Assembly (NCBI GenBank): GCA_017484065.1
Contig: JAFUTX010000031.1
Coordinates: 34,581 to 98,580 of the forward strand
Reading direction: 5' to 3'
Source of the DNA: Bacilli bacterium
GTDB taxonomy: Bacteria; Bacillota_I; Bacilli_A; RF39; UBA660
Length of the DNA: 64,000 nt
Below the pieces are notes generated by a model. The model made no database searches, was not told the origin of the DNA, and saw nothing but the letters and a program-made list of their open reading frames with translations. Positions 42,831 to 59,710 of this stretch are shown here, piece by piece. Position 1 is the first letter of the stretch. The number at the start of each line of letters is the position of its first letter. The position numbers and the translations under genes are program-made.

Positions 42831-43079
42831 ATGAATTTAGAAGATAGTATAAAGAATATAATTAATAATAATAAGCTAGTGAAAATAAATGATAATATTT
42901 ATTTATCAAAATATCAAATAGAGATATTGGATAAGTATCAAATAAATTATAATGTTAGTAGTGTAAGTGAAATATTATTTGAAATAGATGAAGTATTAGA
43001 ATGTATTGATGCTCCTGATTTAGAAGAAGTAGCTAATAGCTTACAAGAATTTGAATATTATAATAATACAAACAAATAA
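42831..43079 (+). CDS. hypothetical small protein
   Basis: 82-aa ORF. Confidence 0.35.
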   Translation: MNLEDSIKNIINNNKLVKINDNIYLSKYQIEILDKYQINYNVSSVSEILFEIDEVLECIDAPDLEEVANSLQEFEYYNNTNK

Positions 43080-43112: not shown

Positions 43113-43189
43113 TGGTGGAGAATAAGGGATTCGAACCCTTGACCCCCACGGTGCAAGCGTGGTGCTCTAGCCAGCTGAGCTAATTCCCC
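43113..43189 (-). tRNA. tRNA-Ala (anticodon TGC)
   Basis: cloverleaf with GGGGAAT acceptor, TTCGAAT T-loop, CCA end; anticodon loop cTTGCAc. Confidence 0.85.
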
Positions 43190-52000: not shown

Positions 52001-53642
52001 GGCAGAAAATATTAATATTAGACCTTTATGGATTGATAGAATACCTGATGTAATCTTTATTGATCAGTTAAAAGAAAAATACAATTATAAACCTGAGAGA
52101 TTAAAACTTAATCCTATAATTGGTGAATATGATGATCCACATAATCAAAGACAAGATATTCTTACATTACCAATAGAAGGTAATAGTGTTATTTATGGTA
52201 TTACTGGTAGTGGTAAAGATTTACTTATTAATTCAATTATATATTCTTGTGTAACTAATCATTCAGTAGATGAAATTAATTTCTACTTACTAGATTTTGG
52301 CTCTGAAACACTTAGAATGTTTAAAAATATTCCACATGTTGGAGATGTATTATTCTCAAATGATGCTGATAAAATAGACAATCTATTTAAAATGTTAAAA
52401 GAAGAATGTGAAATAAGAAAGAATCTATTTGCTGATTATAATGGTAGTTATGAATATTATTGTAATAATAGTGGTAATGTGATTCCAAAAATTGTTGTAA
52501 TCTTCAATGCCTTTGAAGCATTTACAGAATTATTCCCAGATTATAATGATATCTTAGTTACATTAACTAGAGAAGCTACTAGATATGGAATATATTTCAT
52601 AATAAGTACAAGTGGTACTAATTCAATTCGTTATAAATTAGCTGCCAACTTCACACAAAGTATTGCTTTACAATTAAATGATAAGAGTGATTATACATCA
52701 GTTCTAGGAAATACTGGCGGAGTTCTTCCAAGTAAAATATATGGTCGTGGAGTAATTAATCTAAATGGTGGTTACTATGAGTTCCAAACTGCATACATGT
52801 ATGAAAGAGATAAAACTTTAGAATTTGTTAATGCTTTATCTAAAAAACTTAACGAAGTTTATAAACATCGTGCTAAAAAGATCCCAGTATTACCTGAGGT
52901 AGTAACTATTGAAGAAATAGAAAGTGAAATAAATACACTAGATAATGTACCAATTGGTATACGTAAAGATGACTTAGTAATAGAAACATTTGACTTTGAT
53001 AGTAAATTTGTTACTAATATTGCAAGTCAAGATATTGAAGCTTTTACACCATTTGTACCATCATTAATTAATTTATTATGTACTAAATATAAGAATAAAA
53101 TATCTATATTAGATGCTGCTGGTATATTTAAGAAGAATAAATTCACTTGTGATTATGTATCAAGTGGCTTTAATAAATACTTTGATAGTTTAGAAGCTAC
53201 TATAAATGAGTTAGACAAAGAGGCTAGTAGCAAAGGATATAGTGATGATTATTTAAATACATTTGAAAAAAGATTTATCATAATTACGGGAATTCAAGAT
53301 TGGTCAGTTAATATGGGTGGTACTGAATTTGGTAAACGTTATGAAGAATTCTTAAATAAATGTAATAAATTAAAAGTAGTTAAAATTATTTATGTAGATA
53401 TGATTGATAAATTAAAGAAACTAGATTTTGAATCATGGTATAAAAACTTTAATGAAGCTAATCGTGCTATTTGGGTTGGTAGTGGACTAGGTGGACAATT
53501 TACTATTAAGTTAAATAAAAATCCAAGATATTTAAATGATCAAATTGATAATAATTATGGTTATACTATTAACAATGGTAATGTATCTACATTAGTTAAA
53601 TTACTTGATGACCAGCCTAAAAGTGGTATGGACACATTATAG
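49014..53642 (+). CDS. essC: type VII secretion system FtsK/SpoIIIE-family ATPase EssC
   Basis: N-terminal FHA-like region, two TM helices, three FtsK-like ATPase domains (D1 Walker A GTTGSGKSEF); ATG at 49014 with GGGGTGA RBS. Confidence 0.9.
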   Translation: MKVLIIKNNQIINYDLPSKIFGNYWIKDTDLNGNERNLINVEEYNGKWKIKSNNDCKIIYNNTYQEAVYLAEYSYCELEVKGEVEHFILYCCPVYEKSYNIYAIKGTRVLLVGNDSSNHIIYKSNDIARQQIKLTSNNVFWNLQNIQENRKVYVNNLAVTNKNLVYGDIIFLMGLKIIVLNNYILINNPNNLVEVNTQNLELINLTEVEDNPEEDDDTLEVYSKNDYYYRSPRFKSNIAKEDLTIDPPPGAQNNNQLPFWLAMGSMMVMGMRSVFGLMDVINSVSTGKTTWGDAMPSLLTNGSMIFGSLMIPVMTRMYQKKAAKKYERKRQKKYSDYLAMQRNVISNIMKKQKDILLNNYPSVEECYNIIVNRKRNLWERKIDNEDFLTLRVGLGNTKVELDLKYQEKHFSMDEDNLLNDMYRMTDELQELKDVPVTISLTEKFVSAILGNSNVISNYLETLIIQMITYHSYEDLKIVVLTDEKNAYKYEYLKVLPHCWSNDKSIRFFGTNNDDINKISMYLMNEFKERKYQDEEEQNSSKEDDYKSYSPYYMIITDNFANARKVEIIRNTLEQTINYGFSLLILANRLNELPNECTSFLNIDTNISGMIENDLSLESQKPFKADFNSKVNIYECATRLANIPIELSNGSYDLPNMISFLEMYNVGNVDQLNSMERWKNNNPVASLQVPVGVNESGDLFKLDLHEKAHGPHGLIAGTTGSGKSEFIITYILSLAVNYHPYEVSFVLIDYKGGGLAGAFENKDTGVKLPHLAGTITNLDITEINRSLASIESELKRRQRIFNEARDKLEESTIDIYKYQRYYREGLVTEPVSHLFIISDEFAELKAQQPEFMAQLIQTARIGRSLGVHLILATQKPSGVVDDQIWSNSKFRVCLKVQDKSDSNDMIKCPDAAKLSNPGRFYLQVGYNELFALGQSAWCGAPYYATDMRKKTIDANLNFLDTVGEVVKSVDRQKGVNAVKADGEELPHIVKYLTKIAKAENINIRPLWIDRIPDVIFIDQLKEKYNYKPERLKLNPIIGEYDDPHNQRQDILTLPIEGNSVIYGITGSGKDLLINSIIYSCVTNHSVDEINFYLLDFGSETLRMFKNIPHVGDVLFSNDADKIDNLFKMLKEECEIRKNLFADYNGSYEYYCNNSGNVIPKIVVIFNAFEAFTELFPDYNDILVTLTREATRYGIYFIISTSGTNSIRYKLAANFTQSIALQLNDKSDYTSVLGNTGGVLPSKIYGRGVINLNGGYYEFQTAYMYERDKTLEFVNALSKKLNEVYKHRAKKIPVLPEVVTIEEIESEINTLDNVPIGIRKDDLVIETFDFDSKFVTNIASQDIEAFTPFVPSLINLLCTKYKNKISILDAAGIFKKNKFTCDYVSSGFNKYFDSLEATINELDKEASSKGYSDDYLNTFEKRFIIITGIQDWSVNMGGTEFGKRYEEFLNKCNKLKVVKIIYVDMIDKLKKLDFESWYKNFNEANRAIWVGSGLGGQFTIKLNKNPRYLNDQIDNNYGYTINNGNVSTLVKLLDDQPKSGMDTL

Positions 53643-53656
53643 TTAGTGAGGCGTTT

Positions 53657-53908
53657 ATGAATAAAGTACTAGTAGAATTATATGTTCCTAAAATAGAAAA
53701 AAAATATGAAATATTCTTACCAGTTTCTAAACAAGTAAGAACCGTAATTAGATTATTAGTTAAGTCTATAAACGAACTTACTAATCAAGAATTTCCTTTA
53801 GATTATAAAGCAATTCTATGTGATAAATTTACTGGAAATATATTTGATTTAAATAAAACTATTAAAGAATTAGGAATAATGAATGGAGCTAAATTAATAT
53901 TAATTTAG
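53657..53908 (+). CDS. esaB: EsaB/YukD ubiquitin-like T7SS protein
   Basis: 83 aa, YukD-like pattern ending GAKLILI, immediately downstream of essC. Confidence 0.75.
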   Translation: MNKVLVELYVPKIEKKYEIFLPVSKQVRTVIRLLVKSINELTNQEFPLDYKAILCDKFTGNIFDLNKTIKELGIMNGAKLILI

Positions 53909-53967
53909 TTCTTTTTTTATTGTTTTTGTAAGTTTTAAAGTTATAATTTGTACTGTTAGTTAAAAAA

Positions 53968-53996
53968 TTGACAAAATATAAATATTATGATAATAT
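53968..53996 (+). promoter_or_regulatory. TTGACA-17-TAATAT promoter for the candidate antisense RNA, copy 1
   Basis: identical element at 54362-54390 in copy 2. Confidence 0.4.
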
Positions 53997-54002
53997 GTAT
54001 TT

Positions 54003-54101
54003 ATCAAAGAAATTTGAATAAAATAAAAAGAGGAACATTCAATTTCGTACGTTGAATGTCTACCTCAATATATTGAGTTAGACATTTCAGTTCATATTTT
54101 T
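54003..54101 (+). ncRNA. candidate cis-antisense antitoxin sRNA, copy 1, convergent with the toxin gene
   Basis: hairpins ACATTCAA..TTGAATGT and AATGTCTA-cCTCAATATATTGAGt-TAGACATT followed by a T-run; co-varying stems in copy 2. Confidence 0.3.
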
Positions 54102-54118
54102 AAATATGTTCTGAAGTG

Positions 54119-54232
54119 TCATTTTTTTATACTAATAATTATTAGTAATATTACAAAACCTAAGAAGGCTAAATGTAACACAAGGACAGAAAACTTAGAG
54201 ATAAGCTTTAAAATGAAAGATTTTGTTTTCAT
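54119..54232 (-). CDS. 37-aa hydrophobic type I toxin-like peptide (MKTKSFILKLISKFSVLVLHLAFLGFVILLIIISIKK)
   Basis: hand-translated from the minus strand; SD GGAAGGA lies inside hairpin ATCCTT-aatgg-AAGGAT; single TM then a KK tail; paralog in copy 2. Confidence 0.55.
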   Translation of the reverse strand: MKTKSFILKLISKFSVLVLHLAFLGFVILLIIISIKK

Positions 54233-54296
54233 TCAATAAACATCCTTCCATTAAGGATAAGAGGTAGACACCAACAACTGAATGATCCATATTGAC

Positions 54297-54325
54297 ATTA
54301 TATCAACTTCTATGATATTTATCAA
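54297..54325 (-). promoter_or_regulatory. minus-strand TTGATA-17-TATAAT promoter for the toxin mRNA, copy 1
   Basis: reverse complement of 54297-54325; conserved as 54679-54707 in copy 2. Confidence 0.45.
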
Positions 54326-54361
54326 TAACAAATATTACAAAATGTAATACTTGTTGGAAAA

Positions 54362-54390
54362 TTGACAAAATATAAATATTATGATAATAT
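54362..54390 (+). promoter_or_regulatory. TTGACA-17-TAATAT promoter for the candidate antisense RNA, copy 2
   Basis: identical to the copy 1 element. Confidence 0.4.
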
Positions 54391-54503
54391 GTATTTATCA
54401 AAGAAATTTGAATAAAATTAAAAAAGGAAGTATTCAGTATTCGTGTGCTGAATGCCTACCCTAATTAATGGTGCGACATTTAAGTCAAATACTTAAGTGC
54501 CTT

Positions 54504-54611
54504 TTATTTTGCTAAAAATATTAGCAGTATTACTAAGCCTAATAAGGCTAAATGTAATATTAGAGAGGAAACTAGCGAAATAAGTTTTAAAATAAAATTT
54601 GTTAGTTTCAT
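54504..54611 (-). CDS. 35-aa hydrophobic type I toxin-like peptide (MKLTNFILKLISLVSSLILHLALLGLVILLIFLAK)
   Basis: hand-translated; SD GAAAGGAAGGG lies inside perfect hairpin CCTTTCAT-tctag-ATGAAAGG; conservative substitutions relative to copy 1. Confidence 0.55.
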   Translation of the reverse strand: MKLTNFILKLISLVSSLILHLALLGLVILLIFLAK

Positions 54612-54678
54612 CTTAAACCCTTCCTTTCATCTAGAATGAAAGGGTAGACACTCAGCTACTAAATAATTCCATGTTGAC

Positions 54679-54707
54679 ATTATATCAATTTTTATGATGT
54701 TTATCAA
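54679..54707 (-). promoter_or_regulatory. minus-strand TTGATA-17-TATAAT promoter for the toxin mRNA, copy 2
   Basis: reverse complement gives TTGATA aacatcataaaaattga TATAAT. Confidence 0.45.
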
Positions 54708-54799
54708 CAGTAAATGTTGCAAAATGTAATACTTTTTAACCTTTACTTTTAGTATTTTAAGTGATAAAATACACTTAATTGATGAAGAAATTATCTAAG

Positions 54800-55010
54800 T
54801 AGTTATATTAAAAACTTAAAAGAGAATAGTAATCATGGCTGGAAGTTACTAAAGTAAATTTAATATAATGAATTTCAATAATGGAGTCAAATCGTTATAG
54901 AGCGTTAATCTAATAGAGTGCTAATTAATTTTAGAACAAAGGTGGTACCGCGGATTTAACAGTAATTCGTCCTTTATAAGGATAATTACTGTTTTTATAT
55001 TGGAAAGGAT
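54800..55010 (+). ncRNA. T-box riboswitch leader of pheS-pheT
   Basis: AGAGA stem I start, T-box sequence AAAGGTGGTACCGCGG at 54938-54953, terminator AACAGTAATT..AATTACTGTT plus TTTTAT at 54959-55000. Confidence 0.8.
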
Positions 55011-55018
55011 AGATAATA

Positions 55019-56071
55019 ATGAATGATAAGATTAAAACTTTAAAAGAAGAAATAGCTAAAAATATTCAAGAAGTAAAAGATGAAGTTAATCTAAATGTAC
55101 TTAAAGCTAAGTATTTAAGTAAAAAAGGTGAAATAGGAGAATTATCTAGTTATTTAAAAGAATTACCTTATGAAGAAAAGAAATCATTTGGAATGATGCT
55201 AAATGAATTAAAACAAGAAGTAACTAATCTATTTGAAGAAAAGAAAAAGAATATTGAAGAAGCTATTCTTAATAAAAAGTTAGCTAGTGAAAATATAGAT
55301 ATTACTTTACCTGCTACAAAAATTGAATTAGGAAAACCTAATATATTAGAAAAGCTAATTGAAGAAATAGAATCTGTTTTAATGAGCATGGGGTATGATG
55401 TAGTGGATGGACCGGAAATAGAAGAAGATAAGTTTAATTTTGAAATGCTTAATATACCTAAAGGTCATCCAGCTCGTGATGCTCAAGATACATTCTATGT
55501 AAAAGATGAAGAATACTTACTTCGTAGTCAAACATCTCCTGTTCAAGTTAGAACAATGTTACAAGCTAATGGCGATAAACCAATTAGAATGATTTGCCCA
55601 GGTAAAACTTATCGTAGAGATGATGATGATGCTACTCATTCACATCAATTTATGCAAATTGAAGGATTAGTTGTTGATAAAGATATAAGTTTATCTGATT
55701 TAAAAGGAACTATAGATATTGTTGTTAAAAAATTATTTGGTGAATCTATAGAAACTAGATTTAGACCAAGTTATTATCAATTTACTGAACCATCCGTTGA
55801 AGTTGATATCAGTTGTTTTAATTGTAAAGGTAAAGGCTGTAACATTTGTAAACAAACAGGTTGGATTACTGTAGCAGGAGCAGGTATTGTCCATCCTAAT
55901 GTATTAAGAAATGGTGGATATGATCCAAATGTTTGGAGTGGTTTTGCATTTGGTTTTGGAGCAGAGCGACTTGCAATGCTTAAATATGATATTAAAGATT
56001 GTCGTACTTTTTATAATAATGATTTAAGAGAGAATAAAATATTTGATAGAGAGGAGCCAACTAATGATTAG
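55019..56071 (+). CDS. pheS: phenylalanine--tRNA ligase alpha subunit
   Basis: class II motifs; 350 aa. Confidence 0.95.
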   Translation: MNDKIKTLKEEIAKNIQEVKDEVNLNVLKAKYLSKKGEIGELSSYLKELPYEEKKSFGMMLNELKQEVTNLFEEKKKNIEEAILNKKLASENIDITLPATKIELGKPNILEKLIEEIESVLMSMGYDVVDGPEIEEDKFNFEMLNIPKGHPARDAQDTFYVKDEEYLLRSQTSPVQVRTMLQANGDKPIRMICPGKTYRRDDDDATHSHQFMQIEGLVVDKDISLSDLKGTIDIVVKKLFGESIETRFRPSYYQFTEPSVEVDISCFNCKGKGCNICKQTGWITVAGAGIVHPNVLRNGGYDPNVWSGFAFGFGAERLAMLKYDIKDCRTFYNNDLRENKIFDREEPTND

Positions 56072-58496: not shown

Positions 58497-58572
58497 GTCT
58501 CCTTAGCTCAGTTGGTAGAGCAACTGACTCTTAATCAGTGGGTCTAGGGTTCGAATCCCTAAGGGGACACCA
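58497..58572 (+). tRNA. tRNA-Lys (anticodon CTT)
   Basis: GTCTCCT acceptor, TAGCTCAGTTGGTAGAGC D-arm, anticodon loop cTCTTaa, GGTTCGAATCC T-arm, CCA. Confidence 0.85.
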
Positions 58573-58666: not shown

Positions 58667-59710
58667 ATGGATTTATCTAATCCTGATTTCAAAGAAGTAT
58701 GTAAAGAAGTTATAGCTGAATTATCAAACAGTTATGGTTTTGTACCATTAGCTGATTTTGAACATGAAATAGGTAAAATATTAACCGAAGGATATCAGTA
58801 TAATCGATTATTATTACATGTATTAAAAAATAATATTAAAGTTATTAAAAACATTCAACATAATAACGATGAATTATCTAAGCAACAAAGAGAATACTCT
58901 AAATTGGTAGTAGAACCAACTATAGAGTTAGAAACATTTGAAAAAGATATTAAATCTTCAAAACTAAATAAAACAAATAATAGTATAGTTGATAAAATAG
59001 TTAGCTTTAGAAATAGTGACGATTTAGGAGAGTATCTTGAAGAAAATAATAGTCTAATTGATGAAAAAACTTTAAAACTAGCTATATTAAAGCTAAAAAT
59101 AGAAATTAATGAATATTACAAATTAAAAAAAGAAGTAACAACAGAAGAGGATTTAGATATTATTAATCTAGATATAGATGAATTAAAAGATAAGATTGAA
59201 GTATTACATTATTTTATTGATATTATAAATGGTAAAACAGATATTAGTGAATCTGATAAACCAATTAATGATATTTTCTTTTTTGAAAGTAGTGCTTTAA
59301 ATCCATTAATATTAAATGATTTAAAAGATATGGATCGTAATTATTTAAAACGTGTTAAAGGCTTAATTGATTCATTAATATATGATAAACCAAAATGTAT
59401 AAAGAAATTTGTTCATAATTCTAATATTAGTAATATTTATGAAGTGCGCGATATTAGTGGTAAAGTTCGTGTAACATTTGTTTATATAACACCAAATAAA
59501 CTCATGCTATTATCAGCATTTAAGAAAAAGAATAATGGAGTAGTAGGTTATGAAATGGCTAATTTATCCGAAATTAATAAAAAGTATTTAGCTAATTTAA
59601 GTACTATTAAAGAAGATATTAATAATGAATCATCTGATTATTATATTCGTAATCAAAAAAACTTATTAGAATTAAATAATATATTAGACGTAGGTAAAAA
59701 GAGGGGTTAA
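58667..59710 (+). CDS. hypothetical protein (347 aa, no signal peptide)
   Basis: long ORF with RBS AAAGGGGGA; no family recognised. Confidence 0.5.
   Translation: MDLSNPDFKEVCKEVIAELSNSYGFVPLADFEHEIGKILTEGYQYNRLLLHVLKNNIKVIKNIQHNNDELSKQQREYSKLVVEPTIELETFEKDIKSSKLNKTNNSIVDKIVSFRNSDDLGEYLEENNSLIDEKTLKLAILKLKIEINEYYKLKKEVTTEEDLDIINLDIDELKDKIEVLHYFIDIINGKTDISESDKPINDIFFFESSALNPLILNDLKDMDRNYLKRVKGLIDSLIYDKPKCIKKFVHNSNISNIYEVRDISGKVRVTFVYITPNKLMLLSAFKKKNNGVVGYEMANLSEINKKYLANLSTIKEDINNESSDYYIRNQKNLLELNNILDVGKKRG

Follow-up and report, generated by a model that had tools for sequence, protein, structure and literature searches.

[quoted passage not shown] The bsrG RNA is folded such that nucleotides 1–35 pair with nucleotides 232–262 (helix P1), with the Shine-Dalgarno sequence located in the stem-loop that follows; SR4 pairs with the 3′ region of bsrG, the 3′ arm of P1 included, and nucleotides 1–33 stay single-stranded (PMC3834814). 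Loci of the Fst/Ldr family often occur in tandem on chromosomes (PMC7472228, PMC2887945), and the Fst signature consists of a Trp that separates the helix from a charged tail at the C-terminus, plus P/D/S/T-xxx-G (PMC7472228). A hydrophobic helix together with positive charge are general traits of membrane type I toxins (PMC8309996).

The DNA analyzed here, a window of 64,000 nt from a metagenome-assembled genome of an uncultured Bacilli bacterium, contains two tandem units between an esaB-like secretion-system gene and pheS, each of which is probably a type I toxin-antitoxin-like module of the Gram-positive 3′-overlap class, built like bsrG/SR4. An initial annotation had read the pair as two diverged copies of the txpA/RatA and bsrG/SR4 class, and this reading is supported at every point that sequence can address. 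As the units show no sequence homology to a known family of toxins or antitoxins, they are said to work like type I systems; membership in a known family is not claimed.

Layout of the two units

The esaB-like gene ends at 53908 and pheS starts at 55019; the region between them had been described as having no ORF in the six-frame track, and no ORF of more than 37 aa is found there. Alignment confirmed the proposed tandem duplication of a unit of ~390 bp (53950–54345 and 54346–54745), with an identity of 85% and a start-to-start spacing of 394 and 382 nt. The protein accessions of esaB and pheS are consecutive, with nothing annotated between them. In each unit a strong minus-strand promoter precedes a hairpin covering the Shine-Dalgarno sequence and a lysine-flanked one-helix peptide; the plus strand carries a convergent promoter leading into a predicted structured RNA of ~115–125 nt with its own terminator. 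All four promoters (two per strand) were found with the proposed elements and have, in addition, a TG extension. Neither the repeated block nor the degenerate peptide-codon pattern occurred once in shuffled windows. The features are, in order of position:

53964–54024, no strand: identical block of 61 nt, copy 1 (alignment, exact-match search, identity profile)
53968–53996, plus strand: promoter of antisense RNA 1, TTGACA-17-TAATAT with TG extension (10/12 match)
54003–54128, plus strand: predicted antisense (antitoxin-like) RNA 1, ~125 nt (fold −35.2 kcal/mol, z −5.2)
54017–54290, minus strand: predicted peptide (toxin-like) mRNA 1, ~270 nt (fold −76.9 kcal/mol, z −7.2, 0/200 shuffles)
54032–54066, minus strand: 3′ arm of the long-range helix, copy 1, within the terminator hairpin (duplex −31.8 versus local hairpin −12.4 kcal/mol)
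54119–54232, minus strand: ORF 1, 37 aa, MKTKSFILKLISKFSVLVLHLAFLGFVILLIIISIKK, stop TGA (ORF list, dN/dS, hydropathy)
54241–54259, minus strand: Shine-Dalgarno hairpin, copy 1, UAUCCUU-AAUGG-AAGGAUG (sequence and fold)
54261–54288, minus strand: 5′ arm of the long-range helix, copy 1, GGAUCAUUCAGUUGUUGGUGUCUACCUC (fold; 2–3 nt from the predicted 5′ end)
54297–54325, minus strand: promoter of peptide mRNA 1, TTGATA-17-TATAAT with TG extension (11/12 match)
54358–54418, no strand: identical block of 61 nt, copy 2 (alignment, exact-match search)
54362–54390, plus strand: promoter of antisense RNA 2, TTGACA-17-TAATAT with TG extension (promoter scan)
54397–54512, plus strand: predicted antisense RNA 2, ~115 nt (fold −27.9 kcal/mol, z −4.4)
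54412–54672, minus strand: predicted peptide mRNA 2, ~260 nt (fold −77.7 kcal/mol, z −7.3)
54426–54462, minus strand: 3′ arm of the long-range helix and terminator, copy 2 (duplex −38.6 versus local hairpin −9.3 kcal/mol)
54504–54611, minus strand: ORF 2, 35 aa, MKLTNFILKLISLVSSLILHLALLGLVILLIFLAK, stop TAA (ORF list, dN/dS, hydropathy)
54623–54643, minus strand: hairpin over half of the Shine-Dalgarno sequence, copy 2, CCUUUCAU-UCUAG-AUGAAAGG (sequence and fold)
54641–54670, minus strand: 5′ arm of the long-range helix, copy 2, GGAAUUAUUUAGUAGCUGAGUGUCUACCCU (fold and duplex)
54679–54707, minus strand: promoter of peptide mRNA 2, TTGATA-17-TATAAT with TG extension (11/12 match)

Both peptides read exactly as first quoted. 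They have GRAVY values of 1.58 (37 aa) and 1.99 (35 aa), net charges of +6 and +3, and each contains a single hydrophobic helix of ~19–22 aa between lysines (hydrophobic window score 2.8–3.0), that is, they have the generic make-up of a type I toxin peptide (<60 aa, hydrophobic, one predicted transmembrane helix, terminal charge). The substitutions between them, called conservative in the initial annotation, are so inside the hydrophobic core, where His20 and Gly25 in mid-helix are shared, but not at residues 3–5, 13 and 16. Between the copies the peptide frame has a dN/dS of 0.34, with 12.5 synonymous changes on 25.2 sites (including a two-step change from TTA to CTG) and 18.5 nonsynonymous ones on 79.8; the remaining two frames have pN/pS ratios of 1.4 and 2.0 and contain stops. 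Judged from this comparison, the peptide ORF is under purifying selection.

The hairpin adjoining the peptide stop codon is not followed by a U-run on the minus strand; the sequence suggests that the mRNA should continue past it and end at a hairpin and U-run of its own (54030–54066 followed by 54017–54029 in mRNA 1; 54426–54462 followed by 54412–54425 in mRNA 2). Taking the first hairpin with a U-run as the end predicts an mRNA of ~260–275 nt, in place of the ~200 nt originally estimated, and with the mRNA ending at this downstream terminator the plus-strand RNA would be complementary to its entire 3′ UTR. Hairpin and U-run are one-directional and separate for each strand. A simple terminator scan called no terminators, because it demands three G-C pairs and the stems here are A/U-rich.

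Long-range and antisense pairing

The 5′ end of each predicted mRNA can pair with the 3′ UTR in a helix of 27–29 bp. The 5′-3′ duplexes reach −34.2 and −40.3 kcal/mol versus −14.7 ± 3.0 and −15.1 ± 3.2 kcal/mol for shuffled sequences, and none of 1000 shuffles was equally good; when the arms are swapped between the copies, pairing drops to −28.0 and −26.2 kcal/mol, weaker than that of the cognate arms. Comparison of the two helices revealed five two-sided compensatory changes, three one-sided changes of the G-U (wobble) type, two compensated indels (one the insertion of an A/U pair, the other an added A that fills a bulge) and no disruptive change, all from one pairwise comparison, since the only two sequences are paralogues from one metagenome-assembled genome. 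Depending on the fold considered, each copy of the helix contains two to three G-U pairs; as these would be A-C mismatches on the opposite strand, the constraint on the helix acts on the minus-strand RNA.

Local hairpins lie next to this helix, and both of those proposed earlier (ATCCTT-aatgg-AAGGAT and CCTTTCAT-tctag-ATGAAAGG) are present; that of copy 2 has 3 nt in common with the long-range helix. They had been considered compensatory. They do occupy equivalent positions, but they differ in length and register and are not compensatory column by column. The strong covariation lies in the long-range helix, a feature absent from the initial annotation. Shine-Dalgarno sequence and AUG are paired in every modelled state of both copies. 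Modelled antisense binding shifts the accessibility of the Shine-Dalgarno sequence from 0.43 to 0.44 in copy 1 and from 0.24 to 0.18 in copy 2; because this shift is inconsistent between the copies, a bsrG-like translational effect of antisense binding is not supported by the modelling.

Antisense RNA 1 is predicted to consist of a 5′ stem-loop, a hairpin, a terminator hairpin (54081–54120) and a U-tract (54121–54128) which is the antisense of the Lys-Lys-stop codons; in antisense RNA 2 the terminator hairpin (54477–54499) is followed by a U-tract over the Lys-stop codons (54500–54512). The initial annotation had placed the T-run just past the peptide stop and the RNA length at ~100 nt; the U-tract instead covers the last Lys codons and the stop codon, and the predicted length is the ~115–125 nt given above. 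Its claim that the two transcripts converge and overlap at their 3′ ends agrees with the predicted pairing of each antisense RNA with its cognate 3′ UTR (117 and 107 nt, −180 and −177 kcal/mol), an extent within the ~100–140 bp of the class comprising txpA/RatA, bsrG/SR4, bsrE/SR5 and yonT/SR6; the 3′ arm of the copy 1 helix is fully complementary to antisense RNA 1. At the level of sequence the plus strand thus has what an antisense gene comprises, that is, its own promoter, its own terminator and complementarity to the mRNA. No significant complementarity was found between the antisense RNAs and the mRNA 5′ region, for which 11 and 181 of 500 shuffles were as good, and a par/Fst-like mechanism via 5′ complementarity was rejected on this ground.

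The perfectly conserved block of ~60 nt noted earlier was measured at 61 nt and is 100% identical between the units; it comprises the antisense promoter and the first ~20 nt of the antisense RNA and is the sole perfectly conserved part of the unit, while the body of the plus-strand RNA is the most diverged (37–53% identity).

Relatives and alternative readings

Neither peptide matched a family in Pfam-A, NCBIfam or PHROGs (E ≤ 10) or a chain in the PDB, and no homology was found to the peptides of named toxin families (TxpA, BsrG/BsrE/BsrH, YonT, Fst/Ldr, SprA1, SprG and others); the Fst signature is likewise missing from both, which have no Trp, no charged tail beyond K/KK and a Leu four residues before Gly25. 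The Rfam comparison proposed for the plus-strand RNA, carried out with cmscan on 53400–55400 against all 4227 families (E ≤ 10), matched no antitoxin RNA family and returned the pheS T-box and three chance-level matches (E 1.3–9.5). Exact look-up of both peptides gave no match; a word-indexed phmmer search among predicted proteins, for which the two peptides were joined because each alone is below the 40-aa minimum, gave no relative, and the sole match of a profile search of 1.84 billion representatives was a spurious repeat protein (P0001). Viral contigs yielded neither related loci nor degenerate codon patterns, and JGI metagenomes yielded no such pattern in two scans, the second of which tolerated any hydrophobic substitution. 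Among species-representative genomes, a set in which the source species was not found, the degenerate codon pattern had three matches, to proteobacterial or Thermodesulfobacteriota metagenome-assembled genomes by title, which are read as chance, judged from the record titles alone. Plasmids and phages contained no homologue by blastn and tblastn, where the low-complexity filter of tblastn may have masked the query. None of these searches gave a homologue, so the evidence for conservation comes from the two copies in this one genome. There is no third copy of the unit elsewhere in the 64-kb window; a stretch at 42889–42910 was rejected as a further copy, being a chance 22-nt match inside an 82-aa ORF.

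The locus is not in a recognisable prophage. A related metagenome-assembled genome has different genes after esaB, and upstream of the nearest PheS homologues (76–77% identity) the gap is merely of the size of a T-box; from this synteny, the cassette pair is an insertion in a variable spot, absent from relatives.

A genome of metagenomic origin raises the question of whether the repeat is an assembly artefact, made of two stitched strain variants, or else a MITE-like remnant whose terminal inverted repeats mimic a helix. Independent short-read contigs from two samples (L001/L006, L002) end within the identical block, contigs of independent assemblies in general end there or downstream of pheT, and an imperfect inverted repeat of ~28–35 nt flanks each unit. 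Breaks inside the block are, however, expected from a genuine repeat; the junction between the units (54335–54361) is a distinct sequence, 88% like the stretch upstream of unit 1, and must therefore derive from real reads, and the dS of 0.81 between the copies is far above strain variation, next to flanking genes that are identical. Inverted repeats bound by a transposase would be conserved rather than co-varied and would lack strand-specific G-U pairs, and a mobile element of this kind has no other copy in the window; we regard artefact or remnant as highly improbable. Equally improbable is a reading in which the minus-strand ORF is incidental and function resides in the plus-strand RNA, for instance as a trans-acting sRNA or cis-regulatory leader. 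That the only perfectly conserved part of the unit belongs to the plus strand would fit, as would the good folding of the plus-strand RNAs, but selection acts in the ORF frame and not in the others, the ORF has its own near-consensus promoter and Shine-Dalgarno sequence, the G-U pairs favor the minus-strand RNA, the body of the plus-strand RNA is what has diverged most, and no Rfam family matches. Further, the plus-strand RNAs, by their sequence, are ended by terminators and are not pheS leaders; pheS has a promoter and a T-box of its own.

The same anatomy might also serve a non-toxic small membrane protein, for example a regulator or a subunit of a complex, tuned by a cis-antisense RNA. All of the sequence evidence fits this equally well; type I toxins predicted in the YhzE group (e.g., YhzE-2) were not toxic when overproduced (PMC2887945), and His20 and Gly25 could form an interaction surface. 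Tandem duplication, a strong antisense promoter, insertion in a variable spot and a heavily locked mRNA (Shine-Dalgarno hairpin, AUG hairpin, 5′-3′ closure), on the other hand, are hallmarks of type I toxin mRNAs (PMC3834814, PMC8167048, PMC8594479) and unusual for ordinary small membrane proteins, which makes the non-toxic variant unlikely in our judgement.

Proposed mechanism and comparison with known systems

For the toxin-antitoxin-like module, transcription, the order of pairing, the RNases involved and the toxicity of the peptides are inferred by analogy. The minus strand would give rise to an mRNA of ~260–275 nt for a single-helix membrane peptide of 35–37 aa, which local hairpins over Shine-Dalgarno sequence and AUG would keep translationally quiet; the helix of 27–29 bp between its extreme 5′ end and 3′ UTR would close it into a panhandle, which should shield the 5′ end and make for a long-lived mRNA. 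From its consensus-like promoter the plus strand would produce an RNA of ~115–125 nt that matches the entire 3′ UTR with perfect complementarity, the 3′ arm of the closing helix included. Exposed hairpin loops of the 3′ UTR are the probable starting points of pairing, which would spread to a duplex of >100 bp, displacing the 5′ arm of the mRNA; the duplex would be a substrate for RNase III and the freed ends for exonucleases, and peptide synthesis would stay off as long as the antisense RNA is produced.

A bolder version, which we put forward tentatively and consider rather doubtful as a whole, is that of a type I toxin family not described before and restricted to a single uncultured lineage of Bacilli, in which ~35 nt of the mRNA would act, in mutually exclusive ways, as intrinsic terminator, as the 3′ partner in the 5′-end lock and as landing site of the antitoxin RNA, so that the antitoxin would unlock the mRNA as much as recruit RNase III. 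The 61-nt block, identical despite a dS of ~0.8 elsewhere, would then be a control module used by both units, perhaps as a joint operator or promoter, and the identical 5′ ends of both antisense RNAs could let each touch both mRNAs.

The locus is a clean case of a module of this sort being recognised in an uncultured organism by its anatomy alone, and its internal duplication supplies evidence that is usually missing, namely selection on a very short ORF and compensatory changes in a long-range helix of the mRNA. One more toxin family would be added if the locus is confirmed; the current understanding of how type I systems work is unchanged.

In the Gram-negative systems hok/Sok and aapA1/IsoA1 a long-distance 5′-3′ lock likewise stabilizes the full-length toxin mRNA (PMC8167048, PMC8594479); there, the target of the antisense RNA is the 5′ part of the mRNA, to which it binds only once 3′ processing has opened the lock, whereas here the antisense gene lies at the 3′ end and its predicted RNA complements the lock's 3′ partner, not the 5′ part, and the peptides are unrelated. 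The par locus of the Enterococcus faecalis plasmid pAD1 (Fst/RNA II) has convergent promoters and an “upstream helix” which hides the 5′ end for mRNA stability, directly followed by a Shine-Dalgarno stem-loop (PMC7472228, PMC2887945), as is the case here by prediction; Fst differs in one shared bidirectional terminator, as opposed to a one-directional terminator per strand, and in repression via the direct repeats DRa/DRb at the translation start, no equivalent of which was found in the units. The transcripts of txpA/RatA also converge and pair at their 3′ ends, with degradation of the duplex as the mechanism (PMC6562991), and the ribosome-binding site lies in a double-stranded region as it does here, but TxpA is longer and a defined family in several Firmicutes (PMC2887945), to which there is neither similarity nor an Rfam match.

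As in bsrG/SR4 and bsrE/SR5, which belong to B. subtilis prophage regions, a convergent antisense RNA is predicted to cover the mRNA 3′ end. With bsrG/SR4 the units share a structured mRNA (~270–300 nt there, ~260–275 nt predicted here) for a one-helix peptide of <40 aa, an extreme 5′ end (~30 nt) held in a long helix with the 3′ UTR (27 and 29 bp), a Shine-Dalgarno hairpin directly after this helix and, by prediction, an antisense RNA that targets the 3′ arm and frees the 5′ arm. They differ from it in the setting outside a recognisable prophage and in having no detectable peptide or RNA sequence similarity to it; the models suggest an extension of the Shine-Dalgarno helix as caused by SR4 in copy 2 but not in copy 1, and it was rejected as a conserved feature. 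A further difference is that the terminator of the bsrG RNA (SL4) follows P1, whereas here the 3′ arm of the helix and the terminator hairpin occupy one stretch, so the two structures are mutually exclusive. If confirmed, the locus would extend the bsrG/SR4 design (5′-3′ closing helix and 3′ antisense RNA) beyond Bacillus, in a variant with terminator and lock on one shared strand.

Locus and tandem arrangement

The source contig, 213,710 bp of an uncultured 'Bacilli bacterium' metagenome-assembled genome (MAG) with 25.7% G+C, carries the cassette pair in a 1,110-nt gap with an 83-aa gene on one side and pheS on the other; the GenBank accessions of the two flanking products, MBR1414133.1 (83 aa) and MBR1414134.1 (PheS), are consecutive, which indicates that nothing is annotated between them. 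The 83-aa gene (53657-53908, +) comes after a 1,545-aa FtsK/SpoIIIE-domain EssC-like gene; its label 'esaB' reflects this position and a weak YukD/EsaB match (E 0.0027, under the Pfam cut-off), and GenBank names the product 'methyltransferase'. The cassette is insulated on both sides, as the upstream gene has its own hairpin and T-run, and pheS its own promoter-like site, which adjoins the peptide mRNA 2 promoter in divergent orientation, and T-box.

Terminators and flanking signals of the cassette pair (window positions)
53886-53911: terminator-like hairpin and T-run of the upstream gene
54030-54066 (hairpin) and 54017-54029 (U-run), minus strand: terminator, copy 1
54426-54462 (hairpin) and 54412-54425 (U-run), minus strand: terminator, copy 2
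54742-54770: promoter-like site of pheS
54776-54977, plus strand: T-box leader of pheS (Rfam match, 67.8 bits, below the gathering score of 93, E 4.6e-14; Stem II region shortened)

Elsewhere in the window, tRNA genes were found for Ala(UGC) (43113-43189, -) and, right after pheT at the break point of other assemblies, Lys(CUU) (58497-58572, +). At 58667-59710 (+), GenBank gives the label 'type II toxin-antitoxin system RelE/ParE family toxin' to a 347-aa protein whose length greatly exceeds that of such toxins and of which only residues 218-291 match Gp49/DUF891 (E 2.3e-05, just above cut-off); a 622-aa protein without Pfam family comes next.

The features listed in the initial annotation are all present in the sequence, and its observation of tandem ~390-bp units is confirmed (53950-54345 and 54346-54745; alignment identity 85%, spacings 394 and 382 nt). 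Each unit has the minus-strand TTGATA-17-TATAAT and the plus-strand TTGACA-17-TAATAT promoter, all four with a TG extension; the Shine-Dalgarno (SD) hairpins and peptides quoted there proved exact in an ORF and sequence check. The perfect block of ~60 nt amounts to 61 identical nt (53964-54024 and 54358-54418), compared with which identity in the remainder of the unit drops to 37-87% (30-nt windows); no shuffled window contained the block or a degenerate codon pattern of the peptide.

That the tandem arrangement was created by assembly is unlikely, because the unit-to-unit junction is distinct, just 88% similar to the sequence preceding unit 1, because the copies have diverged to a dS of 0.81, and because Logan short-read contigs (L001/L006/L002) assembled independently from two further samples, SRR12529329 and SRR12529324, stop within the identical block (window ~53990), as expected of a true repeat. 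Since they end there, most short-read assemblies of the source organism are likely to lack or interrupt the cassette.

The block spans the antisense promoter, the spacer and some 20 nt from the start of the antisense RNA, enough to cover most of its 5′ stem-loop; given the dS elsewhere, its identity requires either gene conversion or strong constraint. As the antisense RNAs have identical 5′ ends, each could touch the 3′ tails of both mRNAs. Within the block, the antisense promoter is flanked by TTGACAAAATA and TATTTATCAA, which together make an imperfect inverted repeat (53968-54010, 54362-54404), a possible operator that might be the reason for the perfect conservation. Further, a perfect palindrome, ATTACA-AAA-TGTAAT (54333-54347), lies where the promoters of peptide mRNA 1 and antisense RNA 2 diverge, with degenerate copies at the outer edges of both units (~53941-53958 and 54717-54731); it may bind a regulator or just mark the junction of the duplication.

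Peptides and predicted overlapping RNAs

Nei-Gojobori counting on the one available pair, ORF 1 and ORF 2, gave 12.5 differences for 25.2 synonymous sites and 18.5 for 79.8 nonsynonymous sites (dN/dS 0.34); a TTA-to-CTG replacement is a two-step synonymous change. In the two remaining frames on this strand, pN/pS is 1.4 and 2.0 and stops occur. Residues invariant in both peptides include Lys9, Ser12, Ser15, His20, Ala22 and Gly25. Each peptide is one very hydrophobic helix with lysines on either side (GRAVY 1.58 and 1.99, charge +6 and +3); membrane type I toxins are described in these general terms (PMC8309996), and the peptides may likewise be toxic.

The predicted plus RNA ends in a long hairpin followed by a U-tract and folds with -35.2 (copy 1) and -27.9 kcal/mol (copy 2; z -5.2 and -4.4). 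The C-terminal Lys (AAA) and stop codons of the peptides are antisense to this U-tract (54121-54128, 54500-54512), so that Lys tail and plus-strand terminator constrain each other. The minus-strand hairpin adjoining the stop codon has no U residues after it; the first hairpin with a U-run lies ~100 nt beyond, and the peptide mRNA, put at ~200 nt in the initial annotation, is therefore predicted to have 260-275 nt. Terminators are one-directional on each strand. The plus RNA is complementary to the entire 3′ UTR of the peptide mRNA: 117 nt pair in copy 1 (-180 kcal/mol) and 107 nt in copy 2 (-177 kcal/mol), against only -74 and -64 kcal/mol for non-cognate combinations.

A long-range helix and a possible mode of action

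Absent from the initial annotation is a long helix, 27 bp in copy 1 and 29 bp in copy 2, between the 5′ end of the minus mRNA and its own 3′ UTR. The mRNA folds have z ~-7.2 in both copies because the segment from nt 2-3 to nt ~30, counted from the predicted 5′ end, is paired with the 3′ UTR. [quoted passage not shown] When the predicted pair lists were lined up nucleotide by nucleotide, two-sided changes were found at five pairs (C-G to U-A, U-A to A-U, U-A to C-G, U-A to C-G, C-G to U-A) and one-sided changes through G-U at three; the outer end has one paired A/U insertion, another inserted A pairs with a U that bulges in copy 1, and no difference in the 27/29-bp line-up breaks a pair. Each copy of the helix has two to three G-U pairs, according to the fold; their plus-strand counterparts would be A-C mismatches, so that it is the minus-strand RNA, rather than the DNA, that is constrained. 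Because the 3′ arm also makes the local terminator hairpin (-12.4 and -9.3 kcal/mol), the long helix and the terminator are alternative structures. The SD hairpin follows directly 3′ of the helix and the AUG lies in a further A/U-rich hairpin; both stay paired in models of the free mRNA, of the mRNA with a blocked 3′ UTR and of one cut off at the stop codon.

Sequence shows the parts, their complementarity, the ORF selection and the helix covariation; the rest, from transcription and the nucleases to the pairing pathway and toxicity, is inferred. By analogy to bsrG/SR4, the long helix would shield the 5′ end and keep the peptide mRNA, once transcribed, stable and quiet. The plus RNA would nucleate on exposed hairpin loops of the 3′ UTR and zip to a duplex of >100 bp, displacing the 5′ arm; duplex and displaced arm together may then expose the mRNA to decay by nucleases. 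Modelling suggests that antisense binding would tighten the SD helix, as with SR4, in copy 2 only, and this effect is not claimed.

For the cassette, a mechanism of the par/Fst type is not supported. Fst RNA I resembles the cassette in having an end-sequestering helix followed by an SD stem-loop at its 5′ end (PMC7472228, PMC5608710). Pairing of the plus RNA with the mRNA 5′ region was not significant (11/500 and 181/500 shuffles as good), and the cassette has neither a shared bidirectional terminator nor the Fst peptide signature (PMC7472228).

Distribution and relation to known systems

No homologues of the peptides were found among 15 billion predicted proteins, which is weak evidence of rarity since short unannotated ORFs are easily missed. 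DNA pattern scans are stronger evidence but require conserved spacing; they revealed no homologue in JGI metagenomes or viral contigs, and only three matches in 185,579 species-representative genomes, read as chance from the record titles; the source species itself had no match there. Searches of plasmids and phages by blastn and tblastn gave no homologue either. Relatives lack the cassette at either flank: in a MAG with >90% identical EsaB (GCA_947629125.1; L007 3397-7241), five paralogous ~218-235-aa genes (without convincing Pfam family) replace it, and in the nearest PheS homologues (76-77% identity) the upstream gap is just T-box-sized. The cassette therefore looks like a lineage-restricted insertion beside an end of the type VII secretion locus which, judging from that replacement, is variable.

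By sequence, the module is not a member of any named family: the peptides have no family in Pfam, NCBIfam or PHROGs at E<=10 and no match among PDB chains, and for the RNAs Rfam gave no matching family. The type I toxin-antitoxin-like interpretation of the initial annotation gains strength from the ORF selection test and the covarying helix; together with a mode of action like that of the Gram-positive 3′-overlap class (txpA/RatA, bsrG/SR4, bsrE/SR5, yonT/SR6; PMC6562991, PMC8594479), it is supported to the extent that sequence allows. The cassette pair is taken as a new, unannotated member of a well-known kind and not as a kind of its own. It has the 5′-3′ lock in common with hok and aapA1, but there the antisense RNA acts at the opposite end of the mRNA (PMC8167048). 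The close anatomical match is the experimentally probed bsrG/SR4: in the 296-nt bsrG mRNA, nt 1-35 pair with nt 232-262 (helix P1) and the SD is contained in the stem-loop that follows; binding of SR4 to the 3′ region, 3′ arm of P1 included, leaves nt 1-33 single-stranded, and the duplex is then cleaved by RNase III (PMC3834814, PMC6562991).
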